Shown here in pieces: positions 4,162 through 51,465 of a DNA stretch of 52,050 nt (positions within the stretch are counted from its first letter, which is position 1; every line of letters begins with the position of its first letter). The position numbers and the translations under genes are program-made. Location of the stretch: the IMG/VR virus record IMGVR_UViG_3300005611_000005; one strand, 5' to 3'. The stretch comes from an uncultured virus (IMG/VR IMGVR_UViG_3300005611_000005). Taxonomy: Duplodnaviria > Heunggongvirae > Uroviricota > Caudoviricetes. Below the pieces are notes generated by a model. That model was given only the letters and a program-made list of their open reading frames with translations, did not search any database and was not told the DNA's origin.

Positions 4162-4166
4162 TAAAA

Positions 4167-6926: not shown

Positions 6927-6927
6927 G

Positions 6928-7470: not shown

Positions 7471-7471
7471 T

Positions 7472-10207: not shown

Positions 10208-10995
10208 TTGCAGAAATAGGTTGGAATCATTGTGGTGATATGGAACTCGCCAAAGAAATGATTCTTGCAGCAAAAGAAAGTGGGGCAACCTACGCAAAGT
10301 TCCAAAGTTGGTCAGTTAGTAGACTCAAGCCAGGTGCTTGGGATGAAGATGGTCGTAGAGAGATTTATGAGAAAGCAGAACTTACAAAAGAAAGACACAT
10401 TGAACTAATCGATTATTGTAATGAAGTCGGTATCAAATTTATGTCTAGTGTATTCAGTATAAAGGACGCAAAACTTCTTGTTGAGTTAGGCGTTGAAGAT
10501 GTAAAGATTCCAAGCTTTGAATCTCGCAACCACGAATTAATTAAGTATTGTGATGAGAATTTTAAAACTGTATTTATGTCAACGGGAACATCTACCTTAT
10601 CTGAAATTGAAGATAGTATAAAGTATATCAAATGTTGTGATTTTTACTTATTACATTGTGTATCAACCTATCCATGTAACCCATCTATGGCAAATCTACC
10701 TCGGATGCACATGTTACAAAAATTAGGATTTCCTATTGGATATTCAGACCATATTCAAGGAGTCGAATCTGCTAAAGTGGCAATTGGTAAGGGTGCGGCC
10801 GTAATTGAAAAACATTTTACAACTGATAATGAATTACCGGGACGTGATAATAAGTTTGCAGTATTACCATATGAAATGAAAAATTTAACTGATTATATAA
10901 AAATGATCGATGATATGATGACTTCACATGGTAGCGATTTTCAACAGTCAGAGTTAGATTCAAGAAATAATTATACAGGGAGGTTTGATGGATAA
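10195..10995 (+). CDS. N-acetylneuraminate/nonulosonate synthase, NeuB/SpsE family
   Basis: IAEIGWNHCGD, KFQ, KIPS, STG, LHCVSTYP, GYSDH, IEKHFT. Confidence 0.92.
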   Translation: MVKVIAEIGWNHCGDMELAKEMILAAKESGATYAKFQSWSVSRLKPGAWDEDGRREIYEKAELTKERHIELIDYCNEVGIKFMSSVFSIKDAKLLVELGVEDVKIPSFESRNHELIKYCDENFKTVFMSTGTSTLSEIEDSIKYIKCCDFYLLHCVSTYPCNPSMANLPRMHMLQKLGFPIGYSDHIQGVESAKVAIGKGAAVIEKHFTTDNELPGRDNKFAVLPYEMKNLTDYIKMIDDMMTSHGSDFQQSELDSRNNYTGRFDG

Positions 10996-11632
10996 TGTAA
11001 GTGTAATCATACGTAATCATAATGAAAGAGAATACATTGGGTTTGCTATTCAATCTGTGTTAGATTATATACCAAATTCAGAAATATTAATAATTGATGA
11101 TAGTTCGATAGACGATTCAATAGAGGTCGTAAAGCTATTCAGCAATCGTAGTAATATTAAAATACATACCATTGATGATTATGCGCCAGGAAAAGCAATA
11201 AACTACGGAGTTAATCTATCGAAAAACAATATTATATTGGTACTTTCAGCACATTCTCAAATTACAAAAATGGATTTAGGGTACATTCGAACACAACTCA
11301 AAACCTATTCAGCAATATTTGGAAATCAGATTCCAATATATCGAGGTAAAAAGATTACAAAGAGATATATATGGTCTCATTTCGTAGATAATACAGAGAT
11401 CGATAATATGTACTCTACTATTGAAGCCCGGCCATTCTTACATAACGCATTTTGTTTCTATAACAAAAAAGATTTGACGGAATCGCCATTTGACGAATCT
11501 CTTTCAGGAAAAGAAGATAGGTATTGGGCAGCTGATGTATTATCAAAAGGTAAATCGTATTTATATACACCAAAGATAGAAATTAACCACTATTATACAA
11601 CAAATGGGGCTACTTGGAAAGGAATAGGATAA
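10985..11632 (+). CDS. glycosyltransferase family 2 (rhamnosyltransferase-like)
   Basis: SVIIRNHNE, IIDDSS.D, LSAH, FDE..GKED. Confidence 0.85.
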   Translation: MMDNVSVIIRNHNEREYIGFAIQSVLDYIPNSEILIIDDSSIDDSIEVVKLFSNRSNIKIHTIDDYAPGKAINYGVNLSKNNIILVLSAHSQITKMDLGYIRTQLKTYSAIFGNQIPIYRGKKITKRYIWSHFVDNTEIDNMYSTIEARPFLHNAFCFYNKKDLTESPFDESLSGKEDRYWAADVLSKGKSYLYTPKIEINHYYTTNGATWKGIG

Positions 11633-11671
11633 TAAAATATATTTGTATACAAAAAATTATTAAACACAGTT

Positions 11672-12439
11672 ATGAAAAAGAACATAATATTCATTCCGGC
11701 TATTGATGCTGGTAGAGGTAGACATCACGCATATAATTATAGTATTGATTCATGGAAAGGTTGGGCCGGCAAAAACGACGCAGATGTATTAGTTTGGGAT
11801 GTACCACTTTACACTTGGGAAGAAATGACAATTCCTTGGCAAAGATATCATTTATTTAAGATACTAGATCATAATGAAATTGAATTTGACCAGGTATTAA
11901 TGGTAGATTCAGATACTATTGTGCATCCTGATACTCCAAACTTTTTCGAATTAACCGAACGAAAGTATACAGGGGTATTAGATCTGGGGTGTTGGGAATG
12001 GACCGGTAGATCGATTCGACATTACAAGGACTTATTTAATGAATATAAAATTGATAGAGGTATGTACTTTAATGGAGGATTTCAAATTGTAAACGAATCG
12101 CATCGTAATTTTTTCGATACAGTTTTAGATTTCTATGAAAAAAATAAATCAATATTAGTAGAAAAACAAAAATCAGGTCTTGGGACTGACCAAACTCCAA
12201 TCAATTATCTTATTCAAACGAATGACATTGATTTAAAGTTACTTCCATCAACATATAATCTGCATCATATGTCAAGTAAAAATCTATTAAACTTTGGACA
12301 ATCTTGGTGGGGTGATAGTATGGAAAATTTATATGAACAAGCGTGGGTATATCATTTTAATGCTATACCTCGTAACAATTTAAATAGAGATTCAGCATAT
12401 TTCTTAAAACGAGCATATACCGAACTATGGGAAAAATAG
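11672..12439 (+). CDS. GT-A glycosyltransferase (GT8/GT34-like)
   Basis: VDSD, YFNGG, DQT..N, YN, HF motifs. Confidence 0.75.
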   Translation: MKKNIIFIPAIDAGRGRHHAYNYSIDSWKGWAGKNDADVLVWDVPLYTWEEMTIPWQRYHLFKILDHNEIEFDQVLMVDSDTIVHPDTPNFFELTERKYTGVLDLGCWEWTGRSIRHYKDLFNEYKIDRGMYFNGGFQIVNESHRNFFDTVLDFYEKNKSILVEKQKSGLGTDQTPINYLIQTNDIDLKLLPSTYNLHHMSSKNLLNFGQSWWGDSMENLYEQAWVYHFNAIPRNNLNRDSAYFLKRAYTELWEK

Positions 12440-13371
12440 CATTTATCTCAGAACTACCATTTAATGGTAAGGTGGATAGAAACCACCCGCATATGAGAAC
12501 TGAATTTGCTCAGTTTTGTGCTTTAAAAGCAGATCATTATCATTATGATACATTATCATTAATGGAATCGTATGACCATATCATATTACTAATTAGTAAA
12601 AGCGATGCTATACGAAATTGGTTACTCAATACTCCTGATTTAGTAAGTGAGTTACGAAAAAATGGATCCAAAATTTGGTTTATGCAAGAGTCGACCGCGC
12701 AAATTTATCATAAATTTGAGCTACAACACCAAATCAGACATTATAATTTATTACAAGAAGTTGATGGCATCTTAACGGAAAATGTAACAGATTATAAATA
12801 TTTCAAAGGATTAGTAGGTGACAGTAAAGATGTTTATACAATACCGACTTTGATAATATCTGACAATTTTATAGAGTTACGAAATACTATAAAAGAGGAT
12901 AAAACTATGATTGGCGGAAATTTCAATCAATGGTATGCTGGATTTGACTCATATTTAGTAGCAACTGAATTTGATAATCACATATCAGTACCTAAAATGC
13001 GTAATGTGTCATCTGAAGAGCAGTTAGTTGAAGTAATACCACATATCAATTTCAATGAATGGATGAAATTGCTATCGACTTATAAATATGCAGTACATTT
13101 AATGCCGAATATAACAGCTGGAACGTTTTCTTTAAACTGTTCTTTTTTAGGAATACCATGTATCAGTTATATAGATTCAGACACGCAAAGATTATGTCAA
13201 CCTGAATTGTCTATTGAAAAGTACGATTTAGAAAGAGCGTGTAAATTAGCTAAGATGTTAAAAGAAGATAAAGATTTTTATGACGAATGCTCTAAAAGTG
13301 CGATACAAAACCACGATAAATACTTCAGTGAAAATGTATTTTTAGATTATATGAAAACAATCTTAAAGTAA
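12427..13371 (+). CDS. putative GT-B glycosyltransferase
   Basis: AGTFSLNCSFLGIPCI resembles the GT-B donor-binding segment; cluster context. Confidence 0.55.
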   Translation: MGKIAFISELPFNGKVDRNHPHMRTEFAQFCALKADHYHYDTLSLMESYDHIILLISKSDAIRNWLLNTPDLVSELRKNGSKIWFMQESTAQIYHKFELQHQIRHYNLLQEVDGILTENVTDYKYFKGLVGDSKDVYTIPTLIISDNFIELRNTIKEDKTMIGGNFNQWYAGFDSYLVATEFDNHISVPKMRNVSSEEQLVEVIPHINFNEWMKLLSTYKYAVHLMPNITAGTFSLNCSFLGIPCISYIDSDTQRLCQPELSIEKYDLERACKLAKMLKEDKDFYDECSKSAIQNHDKYFSENVFLDYMKTILK

Positions 13372-13451
13372 AGTTAACTAAATTAGGAATGATGAAAAAT
13401 TTTACATATATTATAGTAAATTAGCTAAAGAACAATACCTAAATCATTATC

Positions 13452-14684
13452 ATGAGAATATCTATAATTCAGCCTTCCAGAAACAATTTGAAATATCTTA
13501 AGTGGGCTTATCAAGCCATTAGAAATAATCAAGGCGATCATATAGTAGAAATTTGTATAGCAGATGATGCTTCAACAGACGGTACATGGGAATGGTGCCA
13601 GCAAATTTTAGAAGAAGGCGATACGCATTTCAAATGTATTCGTAATGAAGGGCCTGATCGATTAGGTCATACTATTTTATACGATCGTCTAATTAATGAA
13701 GTTGCTAGCTACGATGTATGTATGATTTATCATGCAGACATGTATTTATGTCCAGGAGCTTTAGATGCCATTGAAAAACATATCGGACCTAAAAAGATAG
13801 TTTCATTAACAAGAATAGAGCCGCCGCTGCACCCTGCCGGTCCTGAAAAGATCGTTCATGACTTTGGTACTGAGCCTGAAAATTTCGATGAAGATGGATT
13901 AATTTGTGCATTAGCAACAATTGAAGAAGAAGGATTTAAGCCAGATACAGTTGGAGTATTTGCCCCATGGGCATTTATGAAAGCAGACTTTCAAGAGATT
14001 GGAGGACATGATCCGTTATATGCACCTCAATCAAAAGAAGATTCAGATATCTTTAATAGGTTTCATTTAAATGGTGTTAAGTTTGTACAAACGTGGGAAG
14101 GCTTTGTTTATCATATGACTTGCCGTGGTAGTCGATTCAATCCGACATTAACTACGCCGGGGCAAAATAGTACAGAATGGGAAATGCAAAATGTACGATC
14201 ATCTAGAAATTTCATTCGCAAATGGGGACATTTTGTTAAACATGATCGATACATGAAGCCGATAGTAGTTCCTAAATATAATATTGCTATTGTACTTTCA
14301 ATGAATCCGTCTTTGCAATTGATTTATGATTTAGAACCATGGTGCGATCGAATATACATTGATGAAGTATTGCCGGAAATGTCATATGAATATCGAGATA
14401 TGGAGCAGAAAAATACTGCGTTTGATTTGGCAAAACGAGTACTAAATAAATTTGATAACGACCCTGAAGCTGAAAATGACATTGTAGTTTACATTGACAA
14501 AAGTAAATTCGGTCAAGAGCAATTTCAAGCGCTAATTCAATTACCTGAAATAATTGAAGAGCAAATAGTTGAAGTTCCAGAGCCTCTTACTTTTGACCTC
14601 GTCGGCATGAAAGTTGTCGTTCAAAACAATGCAACGTATGAAAATGAACTAATTAAAATTAACACTCAATATAATACAAAATGA
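13452..14684 (+). CDS. glycosyltransferase family 2
   Basis: SIIQP..N, DDASTDGT, HADM, IGG.D, ED.D motifs. Confidence 0.88.
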   Translation: MRISIIQPSRNNLKYLKWAYQAIRNNQGDHIVEICIADDASTDGTWEWCQQILEEGDTHFKCIRNEGPDRLGHTILYDRLINEVASYDVCMIYHADMYLCPGALDAIEKHIGPKKIVSLTRIEPPLHPAGPEKIVHDFGTEPENFDEDGLICALATIEEEGFKPDTVGVFAPWAFMKADFQEIGGHDPLYAPQSKEDSDIFNRFHLNGVKFVQTWEGFVYHMTCRGSRFNPTLTTPGQNSTEWEMQNVRSSRNFIRKWGHFVKHDRYMKPIVVPKYNIAIVLSMNPSLQLIYDLEPWCDRIYIDEVLPEMSYEYRDMEQKNTAFDLAKRVLNKFDNDPEAENDIVVYIDKSKFGQEQFQALIQLPEIIEEQIVEVPEPLTFDLVGMKVVVQNNATYENELIKINTQYNTK

Positions 14685-15583
14685 AGAAGATTTTAGTAAC
14701 TGGGGGCTGTGGCTTCATAGGATCGTATCTTGTGGATACGTTAGTTGCAGAGGGGTATTCGGTATCCGTTTTAGACAATTTATCCTCAGAGTCCAGTTCT
14801 GAAGAAAATGTTAATCCATATGTAAAATATTATTTTGGAGATATACATAACATAGATATTATTTTAAATTTCGAGCAATTTGATGAAATTTATCATTTAG
14901 CTGCAGAAGCTAGAATTCAACCGTCATTTGATCAGCCAGTGCATTGGTTTAAAGAAAATGCATTAGGTACTATGAAGGTTTTAGAATATGCACGTCGAAG
15001 TAAATCTGGAATTGTAGTATACGCTACGACTTCTTCAAAGACTCATGGAATACATCATAGTCCATATACACTTTCGAAAGTAGTAGGTGAGGAAATTTTA
15101 AAAATGTATCATGAAGCGTATGGAATTAAATGTGTATCAGCTACATTTCATAATGTATATGGACCAGGCGAGCCTAATAAAGGAGAATGGGCTACAGTAG
15201 TAGCAAAATTTCTTCACCAATACCGCAATGGCCAAAAATTAACAGTAGTAGGTACCGGTGATCAAGAACGAGACTTTACTCACGTAGCTGACATTTGTGA
15301 AGGGCTGATGGCTTTAGGAGATTTTAAAAATTGGCCACTTGAAATATATCCTGATGGTCGAAATTTTGATTTAGGAAAAGGAGAGGCAATTTCTATTATT
15401 GATCTTGCACGATATATTGTCGATGGCATAGACTCGAAGATTGATTTTGTTCCATTTCGTAAAAATGAAGGTCAACGTACTTTAGCAGATGTAGAAACGA
15501 CATACAAATATTTTAATTTTCGAGCTAATCGCTCTTTATTTGATTATATAAACTTCATTAAACAACAAATACATAAATTATGA
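14681..15583 (+). CDS. NAD-dependent NDP-sugar epimerase/dehydratase
   Basis: GGCGFIG, YTLSK (YxxxK), NVYGP, RDFTHV. Confidence 0.92.
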   Translation: MKKILVTGGCGFIGSYLVDTLVAEGYSVSVLDNLSSESSSEENVNPYVKYYFGDIHNIDIILNFEQFDEIYHLAAEARIQPSFDQPVHWFKENALGTMKVLEYARRSKSGIVVYATTSSKTHGIHHSPYTLSKVVGEEILKMYHEAYGIKCVSATFHNVYGPGEPNKGEWATVVAKFLHQYRNGQKLTVVGTGDQERDFTHVADICEGLMALGDFKNWPLEIYPDGRNFDLGKGEAISIIDLARYIVDGIDSKIDFVPFRKNEGQRTLADVETTYKYFNFRANRSLFDYINFIKQQIHKL

Positions 15584-16440
15584 ACTCATCTATAGGAATT
15601 ATTGGACAAGGGTTTGTCGGTTCGGCAGTCCGCGAAGGAATGAAAAATCACTTCAATGTCGTTTGTTATGATAAAGATCCAAATAAATACAGTAATATTG
15701 GATCTATCTTTGAAATGATGGAAATTGTAGATACCACTTTTCTTTGCGTACCTACACCAATGCAACGATCAGGAGAATGCGATTTAGGAATAATTGGAGC
15801 CGCTCTTAACGATATCGCAGCATGTGCTAAAACTCTAGACAAAAAAGGATTTATCGTTATTATTAAATCTACGGTACCTCCTGGTACGACTGAATACTTC
15901 AATTCAATTTTTAAAGATTTAGATATCGTCTTCAATCCAGAGTTCTTAACTGAAGCGAATGCAATTGAAGATTATAAAAATCAAAATCGAATTATTATTG
16001 GAGGTGAAAGGCCAGGAACGACTCAGGTAAAACAAATATTTGCAAAGGCATTTCCTAAAGTTCCTATTATTAAGACTTCATCTACTATTGCAGAAATGAT
16101 TAAATACGTTACAAATACATTTCTAGCTACGAAAGTTTCTTTTGCAAATGAAATGTATCAAATTTGTCAAGCTCTAAACATTGATTACGATAAAGTAATT
16201 GAATATGCTCGCTATGACGATCGTTTAGGTAATTCGCATTGGGCAGTTCCCGGGCCAGACGGAGACAAAGGGTTTGGTGGAAGTTGCTTTCCGAAAGATG
16301 TTAATTCGTTAATATATCAAGCTAAATTATTTGGCATAGAGCCGACGATGCTTGAGGCTGCATGGAATAAGAATATTGAAGTTCGTCCTAGCAAAGATTG
16401 GGAACTTTTAAAAGGCAGAGCTATAAGCGACTCTTTATAA
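15580..16440 (+). CDS. UDP-glucose/GDP-mannose dehydrogenase family (short form)
   Basis: GQGFVG, CVPTP, KSTVPPG, NPEFL, GFGGSCFPKD; ends before the usual C-terminal UDP-binding domain. Confidence 0.9.
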   Translation: MNSSIGIIGQGFVGSAVREGMKNHFNVVCYDKDPNKYSNIGSIFEMMEIVDTTFLCVPTPMQRSGECDLGIIGAALNDIAACAKTLDKKGFIVIIKSTVPPGTTEYFNSIFKDLDIVFNPEFLTEANAIEDYKNQNRIIIGGERPGTTQVKQIFAKAFPKVPIIKTSSTIAEMIKYVTNTFLATKVSFANEMYQICQALNIDYDKVIEYARYDDRLGNSHWAVPGPDGDKGFGGSCFPKDVNSLIYQAKLFGIEPTMLEAAWNKNIEVRPSKDWELLKGRAISDSL

Positions 16441-26514: not shown

Positions 26515-29500
26515 ATGAAACGATTACTATTATTTCTACTACTCCTTGTAGCAAACTATTCATTTGCACAACCTGGTGGTAATTGTCCAAATGCCGATTT
26601 CTCCATGAATGGATTTCAAAACTGGGTTGGTGGGATTGGCAACTGCTGTCCTATTGTGATTACGAATCCAAACACCATTCAAAATGGTCGTCATACCATT
26701 ATGACTCCTGGTCTAGACCCCATTATTAATGCTCTAACAAGAACACCTCCTGGCACTCCTCAATCCGCTCGCTTAGGGAACAGTCAGGTAGGGGCTCAGG
26801 CGGAAAGTTTAACCTACTCGTTTACGGTTTCTCAGCAAAATGCTCTATTTATATATAGGTATGCGGTGGTATTACAAGACCCAGGTCACCCACCTATTGC
26901 TCAACCTCGTTTTGAAATGCAAGTTAGAAATCAAAACGGAGGCATTATTCCTTGCACATTTTATCAAGTAGCTGCTGGCAACAACATCCCAGGTTTTGTA
27001 AACCAAGGTCAGGTTCGGTGGAGAAACTGGACCACAACCGGCGTCAATCTGTTGAATTATGTGGGTCAGGTTGTTACAATTGAAGCTAGAACGGGTGACT
27101 GCGATTATTCTGGTCACTATGGTTATGCATATTTAGCCGCCGAATGCCGCCCACTTCAAATTGATATCACTTATTGTGTAGGAGATACAGTTGCTACCTT
27201 AGTTGCTCCTCCGGGGTTTGTGGGTTACCAATGGTCAAATGGAGCTACCACTCAGCAAATTTCAATTGTGAATCCTACCTGGGGTCAGAATGTATATCAA
27301 GTTACATTGACTTCAGCTACCGGTTGTACAGCTCAACTTTCTGCAAATATCAACCCTGTATTACCAAATGCTCATTTTAATTGGCAAAGTCTATGTAATG
27401 GCCAAATACAATTTAACGATTCTACCGTAATACCAGGAGTTCAGCCCGCTGTATGGAATTGGTCCTTTGGTGATGGAGGCCAATCATCATTCCAGAATCC
27501 AATTCATACATATCAGAGTCCAGGCCCATACAATGTTACTTTAATTTCATCAGCTCAGGTTGGCTGTGAAGATACTGTCACATTACCAATAGTAGTACCT
27601 CCAATTCCTTATGCCAATTTCAATATCGATACCCTTTGTGGTTTAACTAAAAACTTTACAGATCAATCCACAATTGCTAACCCTGGCGGTATTGTTTCTT
27701 GGTTTTGGGACTTTGGGGACGGTACTACAGATACTATTCAAAATACATCGCATACCTATTCTTCACCAGGTAATTTCAACGTAACTTTAATCGTAACTGA
27801 CAGTGTAGGATGTTCAGATACTATTACCAAACCTGTCATAATTAACTCAATACCTCAAGCCAGCTTTACAACGCAAAACGTATGTGCTGGTCAGAATATG
27901 CCATTTACTAATACTTCAACTATTTTAGGAGGTGGATTAATGAACCACTCTTGGAATTTTGGTAATGGCGCAACTTCAATACAAACATCTCCATGGTATC
28001 AATACCCTAATCCAGGTACCTATACAGTAACTTTAATTGTAACAGGCCCTGGTGGATGTAAAGATACTGCAACTCAACAAGTGACCGTTAATCCTATACC
28101 AGTAGCGGCCTTTACATTACCGAATACATGCGGACTAAGTGATACAATAACAAATATATCAACAGTTTCTCCTCCAGCACAAATAACCTCCTATCAATGG
28201 AATTTAGGAAATGGACAAACCTCTAACCAACAGAATCCTATTTACAATTATGCTAATCCCGGTGTATATAATGTTACGCTAACTGTCACTTCAACTGGTG
28301 GATGTACTGACTCAGAAACTCAGCCACTTACAATTAATTCAATACCGGTAGCTTCGTTTACTGCTCCGCAAACTTGTCATGGAAATGCAGTGCCATTTAC
28401 TAATACATCAACTATTTTAGGTAATGCCAACTTAAACTATCAATGGAATTTTGGTAATGGTAATACTTCTAATCAAACAAATCCTACTCAACTTTATGCC
28501 AATCCAGGACAGTATTTAGTAACATTAATAGTAACAGGTCCAGGCTCATGCTCTGATACAGTTACTCAAACTGTTAATGTACCACCAACCCCAGTTGCTA
28601 ATATTAGTATTCCTGATTCATGCGGATTGGCGGGCCAGTTATCAAGTACCTCAATTATAGCCCCTCCTGGATTTATTACTTCATATCAATGGGACTTAGG
28701 TAATGGCCAAACAGCTAATCAACCAAACACTAATTACAATTATAATAGTCCTGGAGTTTATAACGTTACCTTAATAGTAAGTTCTAATCAGGGATGTTCT
28801 GATACCATTACTCAACCTGTAACTATTTGGTCAATACCAACGGCTCAATTTACCCATACACCTACATGCTATGGAATACCTTTTAACTTTACCGACCAAT
28901 CAACAATAACCAATTCTCAGATAATAGGATGGAATTGGTCTTTGGGAAATGGACAAACTTCTAACCAACAGAATCCTAGTCATTTTTACAATACTAATGG
29001 TCAATATCCAGTACAATTAATTGTAACGGGTCAAGGTGGATGTACAGATACAGTTACCGATGTTATAACAGTATATCCTAAACCAACTGCAGCCTTTGTT
29101 CTTCCTGATTCGTGTGGAATGTCAGCTGCATTTACCGACTTGAGTTTATTTAATATTGCCTCTTGGAATTGGAATTTTGGCGATGGTAATACTTCTAATC
29201 AAACCAGTCCAACTCATGTATATCAAACTAACGGCACCTATCAAGTGCAATTAATTGTGCAAAATACAGACGGATGTTTAGACACTTTGGTTCAAGAGTA
29301 TAGAAATTATCATATTCCTATTGCTGATATTATCACTACAAATAACTGCTTAACTTACCCTACAGTTGTATTAGACAATTCAACAGTACAAAATAGTCAA
29401 ATTTCAACATGGAATTGGAGCGTAAACAATATCAACCAGACTTCACAGAATTTTAACAATACTTTTGCTTCGCCTGGAATTTATCAAGTCAATTTAGTAG

Positions 29501-30570
29501 TGACCTCAGTTGATGGGTGTATCGATTCTACTTCAGGTCAGTTTGAAGTTTATCCATTACCTTTCGTTAGTTTTATATCGCCCGATGAATGTGCTGGAGA
29601 TTCAGTTACCTTTACTAACTTATCAACTGGAGCAACTACATACCAATGGTATCTAAATGGTAATTTATTTTCTACCTCAACCAATCCTAAAAATGCTTAT
29701 CCATGGGGTCAATACCAGGTTCAATTAATTGGAACTAATCAATATGGATGTCAAGATAGTTTAATTCAATTGTTAACTGTACATCCAAGACCAATTCCAA
29801 GTTTTGGTGGTCAATTTGAAGGATGCATACCTTTACAAGTATTTTTAGATAACCAAACTACAATAGCTAACAACGGAATTATAAGTTCATATATATGGGA
29901 TATAGAAGGAACTACTTACTATACAGAAGACATAAATTTAACATACGGTTCAGTAGGAAATTATTCAGTTAGTTTAACCGCAATATCAGATAAAGGATGT
30001 GATTCAACTATTAGTTTTATTGATGTTATTAAAACATATCCTTTACCCAATGCTGAATTTGCATATTCACCTGAAAATCCGACGACTGCAAATACCAAAG
30101 TAGAATTTACAAATTTATCTCAAGGAAATTTATATAATACATGGGAAGTAATGTCTCAAACATTTACTGAAACTCATATTTCATATACATTTCCTGCAGA
30201 TACAGGTAGATATTTAATTTACCTTCATGTTGAAAATGAATATGGATGTACAGATTCAATTTACCATCCAATTTATATTAATTCTAATTTTACAGTATTT
30301 ATTCCCAACTCATTTACTCCAACCAGAGATGGATTAAATGATTCATTTAAAATTTACGGCACCGGAATTGTTGAAGCTGAAATGTTAGTTTTTGATAGAT
30401 GGGGTGAATTGATATCATCTTATAAAAATTTAGAACCTATGACTAAAGGTTGGGACGGTAGATATAATGGACAACCTGTAAAACAAGATGTTTATACTTA
30501 CAAAATCAAAGTTAGAGATTTCAAAGGCAAATGGCATGATTTTATAGGTCAGGTAAATTTATTGAAATGA
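26515..30570 (+). CDS. secreted PKD-repeat protein with T9SS type B (gliding-motility-associated) C-terminal domain
   Basis: Sec signal (MKRLLLFLLLLVANYSFA-Q); 8 clear W.[FL]G[DN]G PKD repeats plus ~4 degenerate; IPNSFTP..DGLND, FDRWG, GWDG, YTY. Confidence 0.9.
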   Translation: MKRLLLFLLLLVANYSFAQPGGNCPNADFSMNGFQNWVGGIGNCCPIVITNPNTIQNGRHTIMTPGLDPIINALTRTPPGTPQSARLGNSQVGAQAESLTYSFTVSQQNALFIYRYAVVLQDPGHPPIAQPRFEMQVRNQNGGIIPCTFYQVAAGNNIPGFVNQGQVRWRNWTTTGVNLLNYVGQVVTIEARTGDCDYSGHYGYAYLAAECRPLQIDITYCVGDTVATLVAPPGFVGYQWSNGATTQQISIVNPTWGQNVYQVTLTSATGCTAQLSANINPVLPNAHFNWQSLCNGQIQFNDSTVIPGVQPAVWNWSFGDGGQSSFQNPIHTYQSPGPYNVTLISSAQVGCEDTVTLPIVVPPIPYANFNIDTLCGLTKNFTDQSTIANPGGIVSWFWDFGDGTTDTIQNTSHTYSSPGNFNVTLIVTDSVGCSDTITKPVIINSIPQASFTTQNVCAGQNMPFTNTSTILGGGLMNHSWNFGNGATSIQTSPWYQYPNPGTYTVTLIVTGPGGCKDTATQQVTVNPIPVAAFTLPNTCGLSDTITNISTVSPPAQITSYQWNLGNGQTSNQQNPIYNYANPGVYNVTLTVTSTGGCTDSETQPLTINSIPVASFTAPQTCHGNAVPFTNTSTILGNANLNYQWNFGNGNTSNQTNPTQLYANPGQYLVTLIVTGPGSCSDTVTQTVNVPPTPVANISIPDSCGLAGQLSSTSIIAPPGFITSYQWDLGNGQTANQPNTNYNYNSPGVYNVTLIVSSNQGCSDTITQPVTIWSIPTAQFTHTPTCYGIPFNFTDQSTITNSQIIGWNWSLGNGQTSNQQNPSHFYNTNGQYPVQLIVTGQGGCTDTVTDVITVYPKPTAAFVLPDSCGMSAAFTDLSLFNIASWNWNFGDGNTSNQTSPTHVYQTNGTYQVQLIVQNTDGCLDTLVQEYRNYHIPIADIITTNNCLTYPTVVLDNSTVQNSQISTWNWSVNNINQTSQNFNNTFASPGIYQVNLVVTSVDGCIDSTSGQFEVYPLPFVSFISPDECAGDSVTFTNLSTGATTYQWYLNGNLFSTSTNPKNAYPWGQYQVQLIGTNQYGCQDSLIQLLTVHPRPIPSFGGQFEGCIPLQVFLDNQTTIANNGIISSYIWDIEGTTYYTEDINLTYGSVGNYSVSLTAISDKGCDSTISFIDVIKTYPLPNAEFAYSPENPTTANTKVEFTNLSQGNLYNTWEVMSQTFTETHISYTFPADTGRYLIYLHVENEYGCTDSIYHPIYINSNFTVFIPNSFTPTRDGLNDSFKIYGTGIVEAEMLVFDRWGELISSYKNLEPMTKGWDGRYNGQPVKQDVYTYKIKVRDFKGKWHDFIGQVNLLK

Positions 30571-30583
30571 TATTTATTATAAA

Positions 30584-30898
30584 ATGAAAACTACGTTACT
30601 TAAATTGGTTATCGGCTTAACCTTAATATACAAAACCATGAAAAAATTGTTTAGCCGCTCATCTTTGATTATGCAAATCTTCCAAGATGATAAAGGAAAT
30701 TATTCTAGCAATCGCTTTGTTGGAATTATGTGTGCACTATCCCTTTGTGTAACTATGTATCACAACCAATTCACTACAGAAGACATTGCTCCTGCTCCTA
30801 TGTTGATTCAATCAGTAGCAGCATTAGCTTTTGGTGCTTTAGGTTTGGGTGCAGCAACTCGCATCTTTAAAAAAGAAAATAACAATGAACAAAATTGA
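30584..30898 (+). CDS. small two-TM membrane protein (holin-like candidate)
   Basis: SSNRF followed by two hydrophobic segments; start may be 30638. Confidence 0.55.
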   Translation: MKTTLLKLVIGLTLIYKTMKKLFSRSSLIMQIFQDDKGNYSSNRFVGIMCALSLCVTMYHNQFTTEDIAPAPMLIQSVAALAFGALGLGAATRIFKKENNNEQN

Positions 30899-31139
30899 AT
30901 TACGAAAACTAATTAAAGAAGAGCTTGCGGCTGTTATGTCGCAAGCTTCTCATGATGACCATGAAATTGAAATGGCAATTACAGATTTAAAATCTATTGC
31001 TAGTAGAGCAGCTCAATTAGTAAAATTTATGGAACAAAACCAGCCACACGAACTAGAGGGCTGGATCCAATCTAAAATTACTAAATCAGCTGACTATATC
31101 AATGCAGTTTACGACAATTTCATGTTTCCTGGTAAATAA
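30885..31139 (+). CDS. hypothetical protein with MNKIELRKLIKEEL leader
   Basis: ATG 30885; E.MA...L and LEGWIQSKIT.S.DY. Confidence 0.7.
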   Translation: MNKIELRKLIKEELAAVMSQASHDDHEIEMAITDLKSIASRAAQLVKFMEQNQPHELEGWIQSKITKSADYINAVYDNFMFPGK

Positions 31140-31145
31140 ATTTTA

Positions 31146-31754
31146 ATGATGTTATTTCGAATAATTTTAGTTACGATTGCGATTAGTATATCTAACAATC
31201 TGTTCGCTCAATGTGCAGGTCAACAATCTTTTACTCTAAACCCTCAACCAACTAACAACACCTATTCTCCAGGTACAGTGGTAACAGTATGTTATACAAT
31301 GACTGGATGGAATGGTACTGGATTTGGGTCTAATTGGCTAGAAGGATTTGACCTTAACTTAGGACCTGGATGGACTTCGGTAATACCTTCAGCAGCTCCA
31401 ATTAACTGTTCTAATGCAGGTCAATGGATTTGGGTTGCAAATACAGTAACTTCTAGCTCAACAGGAATTACAGTAGGTCCTGGATGGTTTTATGAAGGTC
31501 CTGCTGGACCAGTAGATGGTAACCCTGGAAATGATTGGGGAGATTTTGGTACTAACTGTAGTTGGTCTTTTTGCTTTCAACTAATTGCTACTCAACAATG
31601 CACTCCTCAGAATTTATTAATTCAAATAACTGCGGGTGCCGATGGTACATGGGGTAGTTGGGGCATTAATGGATGTCCAACTGTTCCTTTTAATATATTC
31701 AATGGTACAATTAACGGTTCTACAGTTTTAACCTCACCTATATCCCACAATTGA
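31146..31754 (+). CDS. secreted Cys/Trp/Gly-rich beta protein
   Basis: Signal peptide ending LFA-Q; C-terminus TSPISHN. Confidence 0.75.
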   Translation: MMLFRIILVTIAISISNNLFAQCAGQQSFTLNPQPTNNTYSPGTVVTVCYTMTGWNGTGFGSNWLEGFDLNLGPGWTSVIPSAAPINCSNAGQWIWVANTVTSSSTGITVGPGWFYEGPAGPVDGNPGNDWGDFGTNCSWSFCFQLIATQQCTPQNLLIQITAGADGTWGSWGINGCPTVPFNIFNGTINGSTVLTSPISHN

Positions 31755-31755
31755 T

Positions 31756-32298
31756 ATGAAATTTATATTTACGACATTAGCTCTATTTGTTAGCTTTACT
31801 TTAAGTGCTCAGTTTAGTTGCCCTGATACAGTATGTGCTGGCGATTCAATTAATTACTGGGTTCAAAACACTCCAGGCTCTACTTATAATTGGTCATTAA
31901 CTGGAGGAGGAACCTTAATTAATTCGCCATCCAATCAGGTAGCAATTAACTGGGGGCAGGCAAATGGTACTTACACTTTAACTGTTACAGAAACTAACTC
32001 TCAAGGATGTATAGGTAATCCTGTTGTATGTTTGATTGAAATTATGCAACCTGTTGTTCAGCTACTACCAATAGCAAATATCTGTCAAGATTCGCCAGCA
32101 TTTAATTTTCAAGCATTCCCGGCAGGGGGCACGTGGATAGTAAATGGAAACGGATCAGGAGGATTATTTAATCCACTCAACCCAGGTATATATAACGTAA
32201 CTTACACTTACACAAATATAGCAGGTTGTACAACTTCAGCAGGTACATCCTTTACAGTTTACCCATTACCAAACACTTCACCAGTTATCCATGACTAG
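31756..32298 (+). CDS. secreted Ig/PKD-like protein
   Basis: Signal ending LSA-Q; GSTYNW, V.ETN..GC; C-terminus TSPVIHD. Confidence 0.75.
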   Translation: MKFIFTTLALFVSFTLSAQFSCPDTVCAGDSINYWVQNTPGSTYNWSLTGGGTLINSPSNQVAINWGQANGTYTLTVTETNSQGCIGNPVVCLIEIMQPVVQLLPIANICQDSPAFNFQAFPAGGTWIVNGNGSGGLFNPLNPGIYNVTYTYTNIAGCTTSAGTSFTVYPLPNTSPVIHD

Positions 32299-32860
32299 AT
32301 TTGCATTCTTATTATTGCTAGCAATTAGTCCTCTATTCGGTCAACAAAGAGTTGATTTATGCAGGGCATCATCTTTCCAATATTATGCTGTGGAAGGATA
32401 TCCTAATTCAACTTACGAATGGTATATTGATACTATGTTGATTGGCCAGTCAGGCAATACAATTGGTGTACAGTGGCCTGAAGATACAACTAGAACTTAT
32501 GCCATCAAAGTAAGAGAGATAAGTGAATTTAATTGTGAAGGTCCTTATAGAGCATTATATGTTACTGTTAGTCCTTGCTTTACTTTATACATACCTAACT
32601 GTATCACTATTAATGGAGATGGATTAAATGAAACTTTTTCAATCTATGGTGAACAATGGGAATTTACCTCTTTCTATGTTACTATACACGACAGATGGGG
32701 TACTCAATTATTTCAGTCTGAAGATCCTTACTTTGTATGGGATGGTACCTACAACGGGACAATAGTCCCTCAGGGTGTATATACTTATCGTATTAACTAT
32801 ACTCAAAATAAGAAACCATACTACGATAATATTCTTGGACAATTAACACTACTACGATGA
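32291..32860 (+). CDS. secreted protein with T9SS type B C-terminal domain
   Basis: Signal peptide; IPNCIT.NGDGLNE, DRWG, WDG, GVYTY. Confidence 0.82.
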   Translation: MTRFAFLLLLAISPLFGQQRVDLCRASSFQYYAVEGYPNSTYEWYIDTMLIGQSGNTIGVQWPEDTTRTYAIKVREISEFNCEGPYRALYVTVSPCFTLYIPNCITINGDGLNETFSIYGEQWEFTSFYVTIHDRWGTQLFQSEDPYFVWDGTYNGTIVPQGVYTYRINYTQNKKPYYDNILGQLTLLR

Positions 32861-33459
32861 AAAAATCAGAGCTTCAACAAATTATTAGAGAAGAAATCTC
32901 TAATGTATTAAATGAAATGCCTTTAATAACTAAAAAAGGTAAAACAGCTTACGCAGATGGTAAGCCATTAAAATTATCTAATGTCGAAGAATTAGATAAA
33001 AATATAATCATGTATCATGAGAAGCAAGGTAATTGGTTTATAGCTAAAGATACAATTATGTTATGGTTTGTTGATAATGAAAATTACATTGACAAATTAA
33101 ACAGCGGAGAATATGACATAGTGACGTTCCCGATTAGGACATCATCTAATGCCTTTACTGTTAGTCCTATCACTGATGTATGGAAACTTTCAAAGTCACG
33201 TGGTAAGAAAGAAGTATTAGGTATGATTAATGCATACTTATATAAAGATGAGTTAGTTATAGAAATGATGTCAGTACGAGGTGCGTGGCAAGGTAATCGA
33301 ATCAACTCATTAATGATAGATTCTCTTAAAAGTTCATTTCCAGGCAAAACATTAGCATTTGAAGATCCTACAAAAGACGGATGGGCATTTATTGAAAAAT
33401 ACGCTCCTGATGCTAAAGTTTATGAAGATGGTAAAGTTGTACAAAATAAAGTTGCTTAA
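32857..33459 (+). CDS. GNAT-like acetyltransferase with MKKSELQQIIREEI leader
   Basis: IEMMSV...WQGNRI..LM (motif A-like), T.DG..F. Confidence 0.55.
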   Translation: MKKSELQQIIREEISNVLNEMPLITKKGKTAYADGKPLKLSNVEELDKNIIMYHEKQGNWFIAKDTIMLWFVDNENYIDKLNSGEYDIVTFPIRTSSNAFTVSPITDVWKLSKSRGKKEVLGMINAYLYKDELVIEMMSVRGAWQGNRINSLMIDSLKSSFPGKTLAFEDPTKDGWAFIEKYAPDAKVYEDGKVVQNKVA

Positions 33460-47964: not shown

Positions 47965-48336
47965 GGGCCTGACTGGAATTGATCCGCAGGTATGTTCTTT
48001 GATATGATGCAGGCAGTCTTAGATGGAAAGACTTAAATCACCTATCAATTGTCGTAAATGGCAACACTTCTACTTTTACTTACGAAGACGCTTTAGCTTT
48101 CGTAGGTGCGGATTTTGCAGTAGCTGCTTAATCGCTCTCGTATCACTCATGGGGATCAAAAAGAAGTGAATGACCCGGTTTTTGCACTTTGTACCTTAAA
48201 CAAATCGCCTACCGATTGCAAGTGAGAGTAGCCATACAAACTTGATATTTTGTCTGTTTAGAAAAACGGAATAAGCCTGTGAATGAGTACTTAGTGCAAA
48301 CTGAGGGAGACGTGGGTTCGAATCCCACCAGGTCCA
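47965..48336 (+). ncRNA. ssrA: tmRNA
   Basis: 5' GGGCCTG pairs with 3' CAGGTCC-A, with G3:U alanine determinant; T-arm GTGGG-TTCGAAT-CCCAC; internal tag ORF 48060-48131 ending AVAA-stop; CCA not encoded. Confidence 0.92.
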
Positions 48337-48370
48337 CTGTTTTTTTTTGTTTAACTTTAATTTAATTAGT

Positions 48371-48590: not shown

Positions 48591-49001
48591 ATGAAACAAT
48601 TTTTTAAAGGTATTAAAAACTTAATTAGCTGGTTTAAGGTAATCTACAATGACAGAGACTGGGATAATGCCTATATGGAAATCATTCTGTATAAGAAACT
48701 GTGTGGTATCCATAAAACATTAATGCAGGATGAATACGTCACAACTAGCAGAAAAAAATCAATCCAAGCATTGTCAATTTGTATTGCCATCTTAGAACGT
48801 AGACTGAATGAATGGTACATGGAGGTATATCATTTATCTCCTAGCACAGACAGTGATGGCACGCTCGTGAGTTACATAGATAGTGATGGTACGCTCCTGA
48901 GTTATGAATCAAACTTACTAGAGGTAATGTCTATAGAAAAGAGAGACCAACAAGTACTCTGGAAACTAATTCAAAAATATAGTGAATATTGGTGGACATA
49001 A
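48591..49001 (+). CDS. hypothetical phage protein
   Basis: W..VI..DRDWD; internal DSDGTL.SY tandem duplication. Confidence 0.7.
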   Translation: MKQFFKGIKNLISWFKVIYNDRDWDNAYMEIILYKKLCGIHKTLMQDEYVTTSRKKSIQALSICIAILERRLNEWYMEVYHLSPSTDSDGTLVSYIDSDGTLLSYESNLLEVMSIEKRDQQVLWKLIQKYSEYWWT

Positions 49002-49002
49002 G

Positions 49003-49034
49003 TTTGGCATCTTGAAATATTATTCTTATATTTA
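49003..49034 (+). promoter_or_regulatory. Bacteroidota sigma-A-type promoter
   Basis: TTTG-N20-TATATTTA. Confidence 0.72.
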
Positions 49035-49054
49035 TGTATAAATAAAAAGTTGAT

Positions 49055-49387
49055 ATGGAATACAAAGTTCAAATTAAAAACGAAATGGAAATTTTGATTA
49101 GACCACGAAAATTTACAGGTTGTACCTCTTGGCAATCAAATCTAAACGGTGTGATACTTGTAGAAAAAGAAGAAGATATTGAACCGCTATGGAAATTATT
49201 AATAGAACAAGACGATTATTGGGAACATTATAAAGAAGTGATACAAGTAGCACCAAAAGAGATTGATGGTGAGGGCGACATTTCAAGCATGTGTGTTTAT
49301 GTCGGTAAAACGGATATTTACAACGTACAAGAATTACAATCAAAAATTCCGTTTATTATGCATCAGGAATACCCTATATTGGAATAG
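49055..49387 (+). CDS. hypothetical protein
   Basis: ORF behind promoter. Confidence 0.65.
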   Translation: MEYKVQIKNEMEILIRPRKFTGCTSWQSNLNGVILVEKEEDIEPLWKLLIEQDDYWEHYKEVIQVAPKEIDGEGDISSMCVYVGKTDIYNVQELQSKIPFIMHQEYPILE

Positions 49388-49465
49388 TTTGTATGTTTTG
49401 GGTGCAAATAACGGTTTGCGTGTTTATTCCAAGCGTGGAATTTGAAAAACAAAATTTGATATACA

Positions 49466-49696
49466 ATGAAAAGATTATTTGAAAAACTAAAGCTGATGTT
49501 TGCTCGTCAGCCACGCTTGCAGCAACCTGTTGTTAGCAGCCGTTTTATCATCACTTATTGCGTTGATGGTAATTTAGGAACTGTACAAAGTTTGGAATGT
49601 ATTGCTGAAAGTAAAGAAATGGCAGAATATTATTTTTGGGATAGACATAATTCATTATACACTGATATATTGTCTGTCGAACAAAATGACTGCTAA
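49466..49696 (+). CDS. hypothetical protein in cassette-like module 1
   Basis: Reads through GTTAGCAGC (VSS); stop lies in TGCTAAC. Confidence 0.65.
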   Translation: MKRLFEKLKLMFARQPRLQQPVVSSRFIITYCVDGNLGTVQSLECIAESKEMAEYYFWDRHNSLYTDILSVEQNDC

Positions 49697-50138
49697 CTAA
49701 TGTATAGGCGAAACAGTCAAGCCACACCTTTACAAAAAGGATGAAAAGTAAACCAATAAAACAATTAAATTATGAACCAAGAACAAAGAATGAAACAAGA
49801 ATTTGCAGATGCTGGAGAGCAGTCGGCATTACGCAAAACCAATGTTAGCAGCAGCCTTTCTATGAGAGATATTGCTGAACAATTATGGTCATTATTGGAT
49901 AACATTGATACGCTGTCCGATATATGTAAGCCAACAGTCAATGACCCTAAAGCAGCAATGGCGTTTTACAATAATGCGATGAAATATGCAGCTAAAAGAT
50001 TTGAGTTATTGCAATCTGATGGTTACAAGATTTACACAAAACAAGAATTTGATGCGTTGCCTAAGTCAAATGGTGGAAGTGGCGAAGATTGGAAGTCGCT
50101 ATCTTAGGTTGCTGCAAACTAATGTATAGGCGCAACAG
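49532..50138. mobile_element. two tandem cassette-like modules with inverted-repeat ends
   Basis: 49532-49546 vs 49683-49697 (13/15 inverted match); 49844-49857 vs 50106-50119 (12/14); each followed by TAATGTATAGGCGnAACAG. Confidence 0.55.
49772..50107 (+). CDS. hypothetical protein in cassette-like module 2
   Basis: ALRKTNVSSS reads through GTTAGCAGC. Confidence 0.65.
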   Translation: MNQEQRMKQEFADAGEQSALRKTNVSSSLSMRDIAEQLWSLLDNIDTLSDICKPTVNDPKAAMAFYNNAMKYAAKRFELLQSDGYKIYTKQEFDALPKSNGGSGEDWKSLS

Positions 50139-50161
50139 CCCTACTTCGGTGGGGCTTTTTT
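50137..50161 (+). terminator. intrinsic terminator
   Basis: AGCCCTAC-TTCG-GTGGGGCT then T-run. Confidence 0.85.
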
Positions 50162-50182
50162 AACAGTTAAGTGTAAAAAAAG

Positions 50183-50214
50183 TTTGGCTTCTTGAAATAT
50201 TATTCGTATATTTA
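50183..50214 (+). promoter_or_regulatory. Bacteroidota sigma-A-type promoter
   Basis: TTTG-N20-TATATTTA. Confidence 0.75.
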
Positions 50215-50233
50215 GATATAAATAAAAACAGTT

Positions 50234-51150: not shown

Positions 51151-51446
51151 GCCGAGAAGAGAAGAAAGAGAAGGCCGTTAAAGATCTAATCAATCAAATG
51201 TTTGTAATTGCTGGTCATGATGTTACCTTTGAAGATATTAAAGACAGAAAAGACGATTGGTACGCTCAATGGACAATGACTGTTCAACAGGCAGAAGAAT
51301 GGAAACAATGGGGTAAGAAGTATCTTATGAAAGAACTTCGAATGAGGGTTAAACAAGCAGAAACTGAAATGCTTTGGATTAATATGCAATGGGGCCTTAA
51401 ATATTCAAATTGGGAAGAATATCATAAAAAAGATTTGGCTTCCTGA
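51129..51446 (+). CDS. hypothetical protein
   Basis: 105-aa overlapping ORF. Confidence 0.65.
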   Translation: METRKRLSREEKKEKAVKDLINQMFVIAGHDVTFEDIKDRKDDWYAQWTMTVQQAEEWKQWGKKYLMKELRMRVKQAETEMLWINMQWGLKYSNWEEYHKKDLAS

Positions 51447-51465
51447 AATATTATTCTTATATTTA
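51434..51465 (+). promoter_or_regulatory. Bacteroidota sigma-A-type promoter
   Basis: TTTG-N20-TATATTTA. Confidence 0.72.

Follow-up and report, generated by a model that had tools for sequence, protein, structure and literature searches.

The window analysed here, a 52,050-nt stretch of DNA from an uncultured virus of the class Caudoviricetes (IMG/VR record IMGVR_UViG_3300005611_000005), carries at 49403–50138 two small modules with self-complementary ends, which the original prediction, made from the letters of the window, had likened to integron cassettes. The modules are probably gene cassettes of a non-canonical, integron-like system of Bacteroidota phages. This assignment is carried by the anatomy of the cassettes, the covariation of their ends, gains, losses and swaps that are precise to a short core, and the linkage of cassette arrays to a recombinase gene in related phages. 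The system has been little described and is a variant of a known, integron-like kind. Comparison with related phages supports the original view of a site-specific, non-canonical cassette system, and the recombinase would be assigned its role from gene linkage in other phages.

Coordinates refer to the + strand of the window unless a locus is named, and are collected in Table 1. Module 1 starts with GTTAGCAGCCGTTTT and ends with AAAATGACTGCTAAC, and the two ends form 13 of 15 Watson–Crick pairs, or 14 when one G·T is counted. Module 2, from GTTAGCAGCAGCCT to AGGTTGCTGCAAAC, shows 12 of 14 Watson–Crick pairs and, over 15 nt, 13 of 15 with one G·T. In both modules the G·T falls at arm position 11, as in the wider family described below. 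The motif TAATGTATAGGCGNAACAG lies directly 3′ of each module; allowing up to three mismatches it is matched twice in the window against 0.07 matches expected, and two matches were reached in 1 of 100 shuffles. Around it, the direct repeat extends to 27 nt (49690–49716 and 50112–50138, 93% identity). Further upstream, an exact 9-bp inverted repeat is formed by CAAGCGTGG (49430–49438) and CCACGCTTG (49511–49519). The positions first given for the modules, the motif, the upstream TAAC and the 9-bp repeat were all found correct, as was the description of the two open reading frames (ORFs, 76 and 111 residues), which start upstream of the GTT core and are translated through it as V-S-S. A generic scan of the + strand of the window for GTTA...TAAC ends with at least 13 of 15 pairs gave 14 matches against 6–25 in 30 shuffles. 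The scan thus performs no better than chance, which precludes calling additional cassettes in the window, and an inverted match by itself is not unusual; it is the shared 27-nt repeat, together with evidence from outside the window, that lifts the modules above chance.

The modules recur in related phages and belong to a large family, common among the viruses of Bacteroidota. Exact copies of the 20-mer CTAATGTATAGGCGNAACAG are present in 14 IMG/VR loci representing nine distinct contexts; the 20-mer is preceded by TAA every time and has on its 3′ side one of two elements also seen in the window, the terminator hairpin or “b”. For the nine loci and the two window copies, the 16 nt located 5′ of the motif were compared with upstream complements starting with GTTA. 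Nine of these 11 distinct copies have such a complement, matching at 12–14 of 16 positions and located 105–761 nt upstream, and the remaining two score 11 and 10 of 16. An unbiased test was based on 35 non-redundant loci anchored on a separate conserved motif, CAATTGGGTATAGGYGC-N-GTTA, of which CAATTGGGTATAGGYGC is the right half of one common linker class. A GTTA-arm/arm-TAAC pair with at least 13 of 15 matches was present in 32 of the 35, and 18 loci reached 15 of 15; when arms were tried on foreign loci, 13 or more matches were obtained in 79 of 872 trials and 15 in none of the 872. Arm position 11 is G·T in all 32 paired loci, and positions 5–10 and 12–15 each show several pair types. The arms covary: their sequence is free, pairing is kept, and one wobble is fixed. 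Across all fetched loci a strict rule returned 206 distinct cassettes. This rule undercounts, because in the Polaribacter phage P12002L, where the strict arm scan gave noise-level pairs only, inspection of the intergenic regions by eye revealed linkers with shorter arms and T·T in place of G·T.

Two further observations concern the cassettes of individual motif loci. ARAGORN found no tRNA in 11 motif loci. At ~2915–3000 of locus L013, a unit of about 100 nt located before the terminal motif contains a stretch resembling a tRNA T-arm, GCAGGTTTGAATCCTGTC, and no ORF; this short unit may be an RNA cassette or a tRNA fragment.

In relatives the cassettes are organised in long arrays. L017, a relative of the window phage, has at least eight units in 6 kb, the Flavobacterium phage mumin6-2 has 11 or 12 units over ~6.5 kb of its 38-kb genome, including four methyltransferases, and a 362-kb phage has at least 14. 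Arrays are present in cultured phages too, namely Flavobacterium phages, mumin6-2 included, and P12002L. The sequences separating the cassettes, here called linkers, were folded as single-stranded DNA and compared with shuffles (103 distinct linkers). They measure 40–191 nt (median 116), begin with G in 99 and end with T in 102 of the 103, and fold with a median z of −3.6, with z < −2 in 86. The ORF-sense strand is the more stable one in 80 linkers and the less stable one in 21 (Wilcoxon p = 1e-11). Measured against the properties of attC sites, taken as an imperfect palindrome of 57–141 nt with RYYYAAC...GTTRRRY cores and recognition of the folded strand, the linkers of the relatives show AAC...GTT cores, hairpins and the strand bias, and those of the window fold weakly (see below).

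Coding sequence fills the units. An ORF covers at least 60% of the unit in 189 of the 206 cassettes. The first in-frame ATG lies inside the linker in 98 of these, mostly 41–66 nt before GTTA, and the other 91 have their own start just past the arm, mostly 17–60 nt after GTTA. The proposed fusion of cassette bodies to upstream leaders is therefore available to about half of the cassettes and is not general. The stop codon coincides with the TAA of TAAC in 59 of the 189 and falls at the start of the 3′ arm in 55; an ATG is present within 88 of the 103 linkers.

Inverted-repeat ends, a TAAC before each unit and at its end, and hairpins a few bases from the junction are also what a transposon-like element would offer, be it a miniature inverted-repeat transposable element with TA duplication in a GTTAAC target or an IS200/IS605-type “peel and paste” unit cut after TAAC by a HUH transposase. 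Such an origin is very improbable. The arms covary, unlike the conserved terminal repeats bound by transposases, and the units stand head to tail at one place of the genome and are not scattered. Moreover, the Y1 HUH transposase domain (PF01797) was found in none of five array-holding records searched, and neither a transposase nor a Y1 domain was found among the 72 ORFs of the window.

The coding layout is open to another explanation, in which the arms and linker hairpins act as RNA in a polycistronic early transcript, serving processing, stability or translation. A 15-bp stem would close each cistron, the loop of the linker hairpin would present the next start codon, and the exchange of units would be a by-product of illegitimate or short-homology recombination or of slippage, with no dedicated recombinase. 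It agrees with the placement of every unit on the coding strand, with the invariant wobble (G·U in RNA), with the better folding of the ORF-sense strand, with the ATG in most linkers and with stop codons placed exactly at the arm start or in TAAC. We consider this explanation unlikely on account of the exchanges and the gene linkage described in the following; the conserved AAC and GTT, moreover, are the crossover cores of integrons.

Cassettes are exchanged at the cores. Over the 10 kb compared, the phages mumin6-2 and mumin6-3 are identical for the first 6.6 kb, bar three adjacent bases, and differ by one 506-bp unit, composed of a linker and its downstream cassette, whose breakpoints share TAACGTT only. 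Phage snork9-1 is without another unit and shows the same 7-bp junction. Further isolates display a translocated block and swapped methyltransferase cassettes, with ends in linkers or at TAAC, and one isolate has an insertion flanked by a 32-nt repeat made up of the 3′ arm and the linker start. In L013 the leader is the same up to GTTAGC and the body is different thereafter. Twelve homologues of ORF 49466–49696 were aligned, and six of them retain the leader MKRLxEKLKLMFARQPRLQQPVVS but continue into unrelated bodies. Conversely, 8 of 19 aligned homologues of ORF 49772–50107 (62 found) retain VSSS and the body, and four different leaders, that of the window included, precede VSSS among these eight. 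As both unit indels and leader/body swaps at GTT are seen, exchange takes place at both edges of the linker. The in-frame joining of bodies to resident N-termini, as originally proposed, is thus borne out for both modules by leader/body swaps, albeit the word “resident” is not always apt, since in both precise indels the downstream cassette moves together with the linker and the leader encoded in it. Slippage would yield deletions between 7-bp repeats at hairpin bases, a point in favour of the RNA explanation; it accounts for losses, but not for gains, translocations or one leader on unrelated bodies.

An analogous break is found beside the recombinase gene introduced below. Loci L117, L118, L119 and L121 are 100% identical over 377 nt comprising the 5′ end of the recombinase gene, the terminal site and TAAC. 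Upstream of TAAC, L117 and L119 have the same last cassette, and L118 and L121 each have a different one. Different cassettes adjoining an identical recombinase and terminal site are not expected if the hairpins serve in RNA only. Precise gain or loss at the core, which is the mark of integrons, is therefore found among relatives. A different case is the cassette at 1811–2244 of L008 (reverse strand of the locus), whose gene for a P-loop protein (MLVAGFPGTGKT...) has a start codon that spans the junction between AT and GTTA. Upstream, the open frame continues into an unrelated domain of 80 residues, and this gene is possibly a fusion made at the core.

The tyrosine recombinase that had been suggested as something to look for is present in related phages as a Xer/IntI-like enzyme adjoining the arrays. 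PF00589 was detected in one of a second set of five records searched, the 362-kb phage, in which a 268-aa gene starts 43 nt past the last TAAC of the array, on the same strand as the array and reading away from it. The protein has a SAM-like N-terminal and a catalytic domain, and scores below the cut-offs of the XerA/integron integrase, IntI, XerC and XerD models (158.6 bits against 265 for TIGR02249; 186 against 220 for NF040815). Its best solved relatives are archaeal XerA-type enzymes. The alignment with VchIntIA falls into two pieces, with 34 residues opposite 81 of the integrase; thus, the IntI insertion is missing.

Relatives of this recombinase were found in 34 IMG/VR loci, 22 of which include at least 1.5 kb of upstream DNA. 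Strict cassettes are located upstream and on the same strand in 20 of the 22, and the remaining two also have an arm-TAAC followed by the terminal sequence. In total, 94 cassettes were counted in 113 kb upstream of the gene, as compared to one in 186 kb downstream and three on the other strand; the controls gave none in 157 kb of unrelated loci and 0–4 in shuffled upstream regions. Such tight, directional linkage is left unexplained by a function in RNA. The arrays end in TAAC followed by TAT(T/C/A)ATATAT..., 36–72 nt before the start codon of the recombinase in most loci. The window sequence at TAAC followed by TAATGTATAG is similar to this recombinase-side terminal site in position and in seven of the first ten bases.

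Among bacteria, relatives of the enzyme (38–55% identical) are present in 129 of 301 sampled genomes of the class, including one unpublished genome, G107, on which no conclusion here depends. In 28 loci of ~3 kb around bacterial relatives, only two strict cassettes were found, from which no conclusion on host arrays can be drawn. In L146 (G067:C57) and L140 (G013:C482), both from bacteria or metagenome-assembled genomes, recombinase relatives 48% and 39% identical, respectively, have a strict cassette within 1.5 kb; that of L146 appears convergent on the recombinase gene, unlike the phage layout. The 22-mer start motif occurs in ten contigs of the genome collection, all of them from metagenome-assembled genomes.

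The features surrounding the two modules are listed in Table 1.

Table 1. Features of the cassette region of the window and its flanks
Feature	Coordinates	Strand	Remarks
Promoter-like 49-nt repeat, copy 1	49000..49048	+	Left border of the 1.18-kb block absent from L020
ORF, 110 aa, no known family	49055..49387	+	Homologue in L017 lies within a cassette array
TAAC core, array start	49409..49412	+	3′ of a promoter-like stretch at ~49381–49408
Linker 1, position of an attC-like hairpin	49413..49531	+	First base G, last base T; 9-bp inner stem
ORF, 76 aa	49466..49696	+	Leader (codons 1–22) in linker 1, body in cassette 1
Cassette 1 (module 1)	49532..49697	+	5′ arm 49532–49546, 3′ arm 49683–49697; 14/15 paired, G·T at position 11
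Terminal motif, copy 1, TAATGTATAGGCGAAACAG	49698..49716	+	Position and, in part, sequence of the recombinase-abutting array-end site elsewhere
Intergenic element “b”, TCAAGCCACACCTTTAC...GTAAAC	49717..49754	+	Conserved; occurs without the motif in L001 and L008
ORF, 111 aa	49772..50107	+	Leader 49772–49843; body in cassette 2
Cassette 2 (module 2)	49844..50119	+	5′ arm 49844–49858, 3′ arm 50105–50119; 13/15 paired, G·T at position 11
Terminal motif, copy 2, TAATGTATAGGCGCAACAG	50120..50138	+	Second window copy
Intrinsic-terminator-like hairpin	50137..50161	+	TTCG loop, T run
Promoter-like 49-nt repeat, copy 2	50180..50228	+	Right border of the block absent from L020

The L017 homologue of ORF 49055–49387 (83% identical) has behind it a 3′ arm that ends in TAAC and, next, a hairpin linker. 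The promoter-like stretch before the first TAAC is conserved in L004, L006 and L013. Linker 1 matches the linkers of 16 Flavobacterium phage records at 79%, and its loop contains ATTTGAAAAACAAAA and the ATG at 49466; the stop of the corresponding ORF is the TAA within the TAAC core. The first terminal motif and the preceding TAAC together provide stop codons in all three frames, and the element “b” located behind it is possibly a promoter. A conserved domain, of unknown function, makes up the body of ORF 49772–50107. The spacer that parts the modules looks like a chimera: on the left it has the terminal motif, and on the right it closes, with ...ACGCAAAACCAAT directly before GTTA, in the manner of a normal linker. 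The terminator-like hairpin that follows the second motif is found 3′ of the motif in seven of the nine distinct IMG/VR contexts.

Missed in the first reading was a perfect 12-nt complement between 49517–49528 and 50106–50117. The former is the right end of linker 1, GCTTGCAGCAACCT, which resembles a 5′ arm that has been spoiled and lacks the G of position 11, and the latter belongs to the 3′ arm of cassette 2. The match could go back to an older cassette of larger size or be due to chance among GCAGC-rich arms.

Other assignments of these sequences were considered and rejected. A duplex attL/attR core was sought in the 10-bp direct repeat GTATAGGCGC that flanks some arrays; its left copy is the right half of the common hairpin linker, and no site with the left context of GTATAGGCGC is followed by AACAG. 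A retron or a diversity-generating retroelement was dismissed as no reverse transcriptase domain was found among the 72 window ORFs, and a hammerhead-like core in CGAAAC because the second copy reads CGCAAC.

The surrounding sequence is phage-like, with nearly all ORFs on one strand, and its Bacteroidota marks are a glycan-synthesis cluster, PKD repeats and type IX secretion domains (CHU_C). The long cluster comprises genes for several glycosyltransferases, for NeuB and a cytidylyltransferase, and for an epimerase/dehydratase and a UDP-glucose dehydrogenase. A PKD-repeat protein of 1351 aa and a second protein, which bears CHU_C type IX secretion signals, are encoded as well; all these genes lie within 1094–16440 and 26515–33459. 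A transfer-messenger RNA (tmRNA) gene is located at 47965–48339 on the + strand (Rfam RF00023, 54.1 bits against a gathering score of 47), with the tag peptide GNTSTFTYEDALAFVGADFAVAA according to ARAGORN. At the gathering threshold the tmRNA was the only Rfam match in the window, and there was none within 49400–50200; Pfam and PHROGs gave no family for the two module ORFs or their neighbours.

The sole close relative of the locus, L020 (91–95% identical), is without window 49049–50179, a block of 1.18 kb, and joins window 49048 to 50180. The expectation of a precise core gain or loss between the two was not confirmed, as the break falls instead within the promoter-like 49-nt repeats. Copies 1 and 2 of this repeat are 92% identical and a third, more diverged copy is found near 51432–51465; a repeat search of the window gave three matches with none expected. 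All three copies follow the pattern TTTG, ~20 nt, then TATATTTA, each upstream of small ORFs. In public sequencing runs, contigs of two out of four contain the joint of 49035 to 50215. Other mosaic joints in run contigs connect 49414 to 50117, 49850 to 50117, and 50107 back to 49695.

This behaviour recalls the promoter early stem-loop (PeSL) elements of T4-type phages, for which the accessible parts of PMC2839356 and PMC4122927 describe small novel ORFs in hyperplastic regions, flanked by repeated promoter and stem-loop motifs and gained or lost between close relatives. The block indel between the window and L020, bounded by repeated promoter motifs, is of this kind. Extended to the modules as a whole, shuffling of the PeSL type would have promoter, terminator and intergenic motifs serve as short homologies between co-infecting phages, with the GTTA and TAAC ends incidental. 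The repeat-bounded block, the joint in the sequencing runs and the terminator 3′ of the motif in most loci favour this view. We regard it as improbable for the cassettes themselves, for it leaves unexplained arms that covary while their sequence changes, breakpoints with only seven common bases, hairpin linkers and the linkage to a recombinase. In the accessible accounts PeSL exchange is ascribed to motif homology, unlike the exchange seen here, in which ends covary and breakpoints share the 7-bp core only. Promoter-repeat exchange accounts for the block indel, not for the cassette ends.

Several observations weigh against an integron-like system. PF00589 was absent from the first five motif-bearing records searched. 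It was likewise absent from complete mumin6-2, P12002L, the L017 contig and a 100%-complete 327-kb relative, and the negative records (nine of ten) include a 99%-complete 118-kb motif-bearing phage. That nine of the ten records, most of which bear arrays or the motif, are without a tyrosine recombinase speaks for the RNA explanation, as does the fact that all structural features would form in mRNA too. None of the 72 ORFs of the window (52 kb) encodes a tyrosine recombinase, in line with the original remark that no integrase lies nearby. Linker 1 folds with a z of −0.57, a stability matched by 52 of 200 shuffles; for the inter-module spacer z is −1.8, as compared to −3.3 for typical linkers. 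The core of cassette 2 is degenerate, with CAAAC replacing CTAAC, and the breakpoints of L020 lie in the promoter-like repeat and not at the GTT core. The predicted empty site, in which the promoter and TAAC directly precede the terminal motif, was found neither in IMG/VR nor in the metagenome collection (0 in each), and no circle or excision junction was seen in the four runs, of which contigs only were searched, which cannot show them. Finally, a linker of this type from P12002L, P12002L_attC1, failed to recombine with IntI1 in E. coli according to the accessible text of PMC9892861.

With respect to the window, the weak linkers, the CAAAC core, the lack of a recombinase and the promoter-repeat indel therefore suggest decayed or trans-dependent copies. 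The window cassettes are probably two one-cassette remnants, each closed by a terminal motif, that are either fossil or mobilised in trans. The instance as such is probably minor and decayed, and its value lies in the lead it gave to the family. The original caveat that the spacer is not a clean attC hairpin and the system not a canonical integron agrees with the folding of the spacer and with the missing IntI insertion of the enzyme in relatives.

Similarities to integrons, in particular sedentary chromosomal integrons and clusters of attC sites lacking integron-integrases (CALINs), are extensive. They comprise arrays of promoterless small-gene cassettes, imperfect hairpin sites with AAC...GTT cores at the edges and variable middles, and a unit composed of an ORF and a hairpin site, with the site on its far side. 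Crossover takes place at the core on the site edge distal to the recombinase, and folding favours one of the two strands. The recombinase gene adjoins a terminal, attI-like site with its 5′ end and reads away from the array, and the cassette beside the terminal site is the variable one. A leader ORF in an integron site can open the translation of a cassette, as is the case for ORF-11 of attI1. The differences are equally distinct. The phage enzyme, with 268 aa, is without the IntI-specific insertion and below the cut-offs for integron integrases, so that no IntI with the additional domain was found beside the arrays. An integron sensu stricto has an attI site and ORFs leading away from intI under Pc, whereas the cassette ORFs of the phages point toward the recombinase; in the window, the terminal-type motif occurs twice and no recombinase is present. 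The cassette ends, which resemble R-box pairing, pair over 15 nt instead of ~7 and with an invariant G·T, the linker is long-looped and bears the start of the next gene, and the arrays reside in phages, most of which have no recombinase at all. Inspected by eye as a CALIN, the window amounts to two cassettes, one weak hairpin linker and no recombinase.

The closest published case is a report of CALINs in virulent phages (PMC9892861, Front Microbiol 2023), which applied IntegronFinder and HattCI to 10,705 phage genomes and, in its accessible part, describes two sites in P12002L. HattCI called a P12002L linker attC. The P12002L_attC1 oligonucleotide is one linker of the present type, TGCTAAC...hairpin...GTTAGGC, located between two methyltransferase genes. 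While attC1 did not work with IntI1, attC2, at the end of the array and in opposite orientation, did. Thus, attC-like sites and methyltransferase cassettes in lytic Flavobacteriia phages are already in print. Unlike the present analysis, the accessible text of that report describes no long arrays, complementary arms, leader fusions, unit indels between isolates or linked Xer-like recombinase, and Flavobacterium phages are not mentioned in the accessible text or supplement.

The rAID-1 (recombinase-associated acquired interbacterial defence) loci of Bacteroidales share the phylum, a XerD-family recombinase beside an array of co-directional small accessory genes, and repetitive intergenic sequences that their authors call reminiscent of integrons (10.1101/471110). 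In the accessible part of that work they are defined by an XerD-like recombinase at the 5′ end, with more than 44% identity to BF9343_RS08045, and at least two co-directional downstream genes of low GC content. As far as the same text goes, rAID-1 is chromosomal, has its recombinase at the 5′ end of the array and not at the 3′ end as in the phages, and carries immunity genes; it gives neither the structure of the sites nor the points of crossover. In a limited literature search, no closer precedent turned up for a phage system of integron-like kind that employs a tyrosine recombinase in Bacteroidota.

Modules bounded by inverted Xer-type half-sites and exchanged by XerC/XerD are known from dif/pdif systems. 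Frequent arms ...TGCACATAAC (3′ arms ...TTGCACATAAC; window 49683–49716, L009 and L017), followed in the window-type terminal motif by TAATGTATA, appear similar to the XerC arm of E. coli dif and its TGTATA spacer. Unlike dif sites, the phage arms vary freely at positions 5–8 and 12–15 and are complementary within a cassette, and the phage sites are hairpins of 40–191 nt and not 28-bp duplex sites.

Taken together, the data can be described by the following scheme. A cassette consists of GTTA and an 11-nt arm, a small ORF, and the complementary arm with TAAC, and in a full array cassettes are parted by imperfect hairpin linkers of the above lengths, oriented AAC...GTT like attC. The first base of a linker, behind TAAC, is G and its last, ahead of GTTA, is T, and its loop usually holds an ATG able to open the downstream frame. 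Exchange takes place at the two linker edges, between TAAC and G and between T and GTTA, by which whole units are swapped and leaders joined in frame to different bodies. In many large phages the array closes at a terminal site, TAAC followed by TATTATATAT..., at the observed short distance from the recombinase gene. We infer the enzyme to be the agent of exchange because the genes are linked in other phages; acting in cis or supplied in trans, it would recombine single strands of ORF sense in their folded form, so that catalysis, substrate and strand choice are all putative. Phages without the enzyme would be served in trans, or their arrays would be inert.

We hold it quite possible, though short of probable, that Bacteroidota phages possess an integron analogue of their own. 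It would rely on a short Xer-type enzyme that does without the supposedly needed IntI domain and on sites composed of 15-nt self-complementary arms and a hairpin whose loop doubles as an in-frame start module. It would maintain an exchangeable counter-defence bank (orphan methyltransferases, Tad6 and many unknowns) common to unrelated phages, including small lytic ones that have no recombinase and are served in trans, and the window cassettes would be among these trans-dependent copies.

The cargo was addressed by a Pfam scan of 150 of the 181 non-redundant cassette ORFs. A match was obtained for 26 and none for 124. DNA methyltransferases account for 18 of the 150 (13 N6/N4, three C5, one D12 and one MT-A70), and one ORF each matched Tad6, Lar (weakly), FtsK-gamma, HTH_3, YopX, GIY-YIG, a PARP-like domain and a zinc ribbon. 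The Tad6 cassette (L115:4229–4864, +; Pfam E = 4.6e-41) encodes a member of this family of type I Thoeris inhibitors and supports a counter-defence cargo. Another cassette of the same locus (L115:1079–1294, +; Pfam E = 1.4e-23) encodes a free-standing FtsK gamma domain of 71 aa, in an array that adjoins the Xer-like recombinase. FtsK gamma is the domain that activates XerD at dif; the cassette could regulate the phage enzyme or the Xer system of the host.

Overall, the cargo points to a reservoir of counter-defence genes, a counterpart to the banks of defence genes that the accessible part of 10.1101/2024.07.02.601686 reports from chromosomal integrons of bacteria. For Baltic Flavobacterium phages, differences in methyltransferase content go along with plating efficiency on another host (PMC7077304). 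The accessible text of that study contains neither “hairpin” nor “integrase”, and “repeat” is used of repeated procedures only. The methyltransferase genes that differ among these phages are cassettes of the array described here, and therefore the system may set host range on short time scales. As regards annotation, about half of the cassette proteins may bear a leader of 14–22 residues encoded in the recombination site. If the 268-aa enzyme does perform the exchange, cassette recombination via folded hairpins would need no IntI-specific domain, and integron-type gene capture would be a tool of phages as well as of bacteria.

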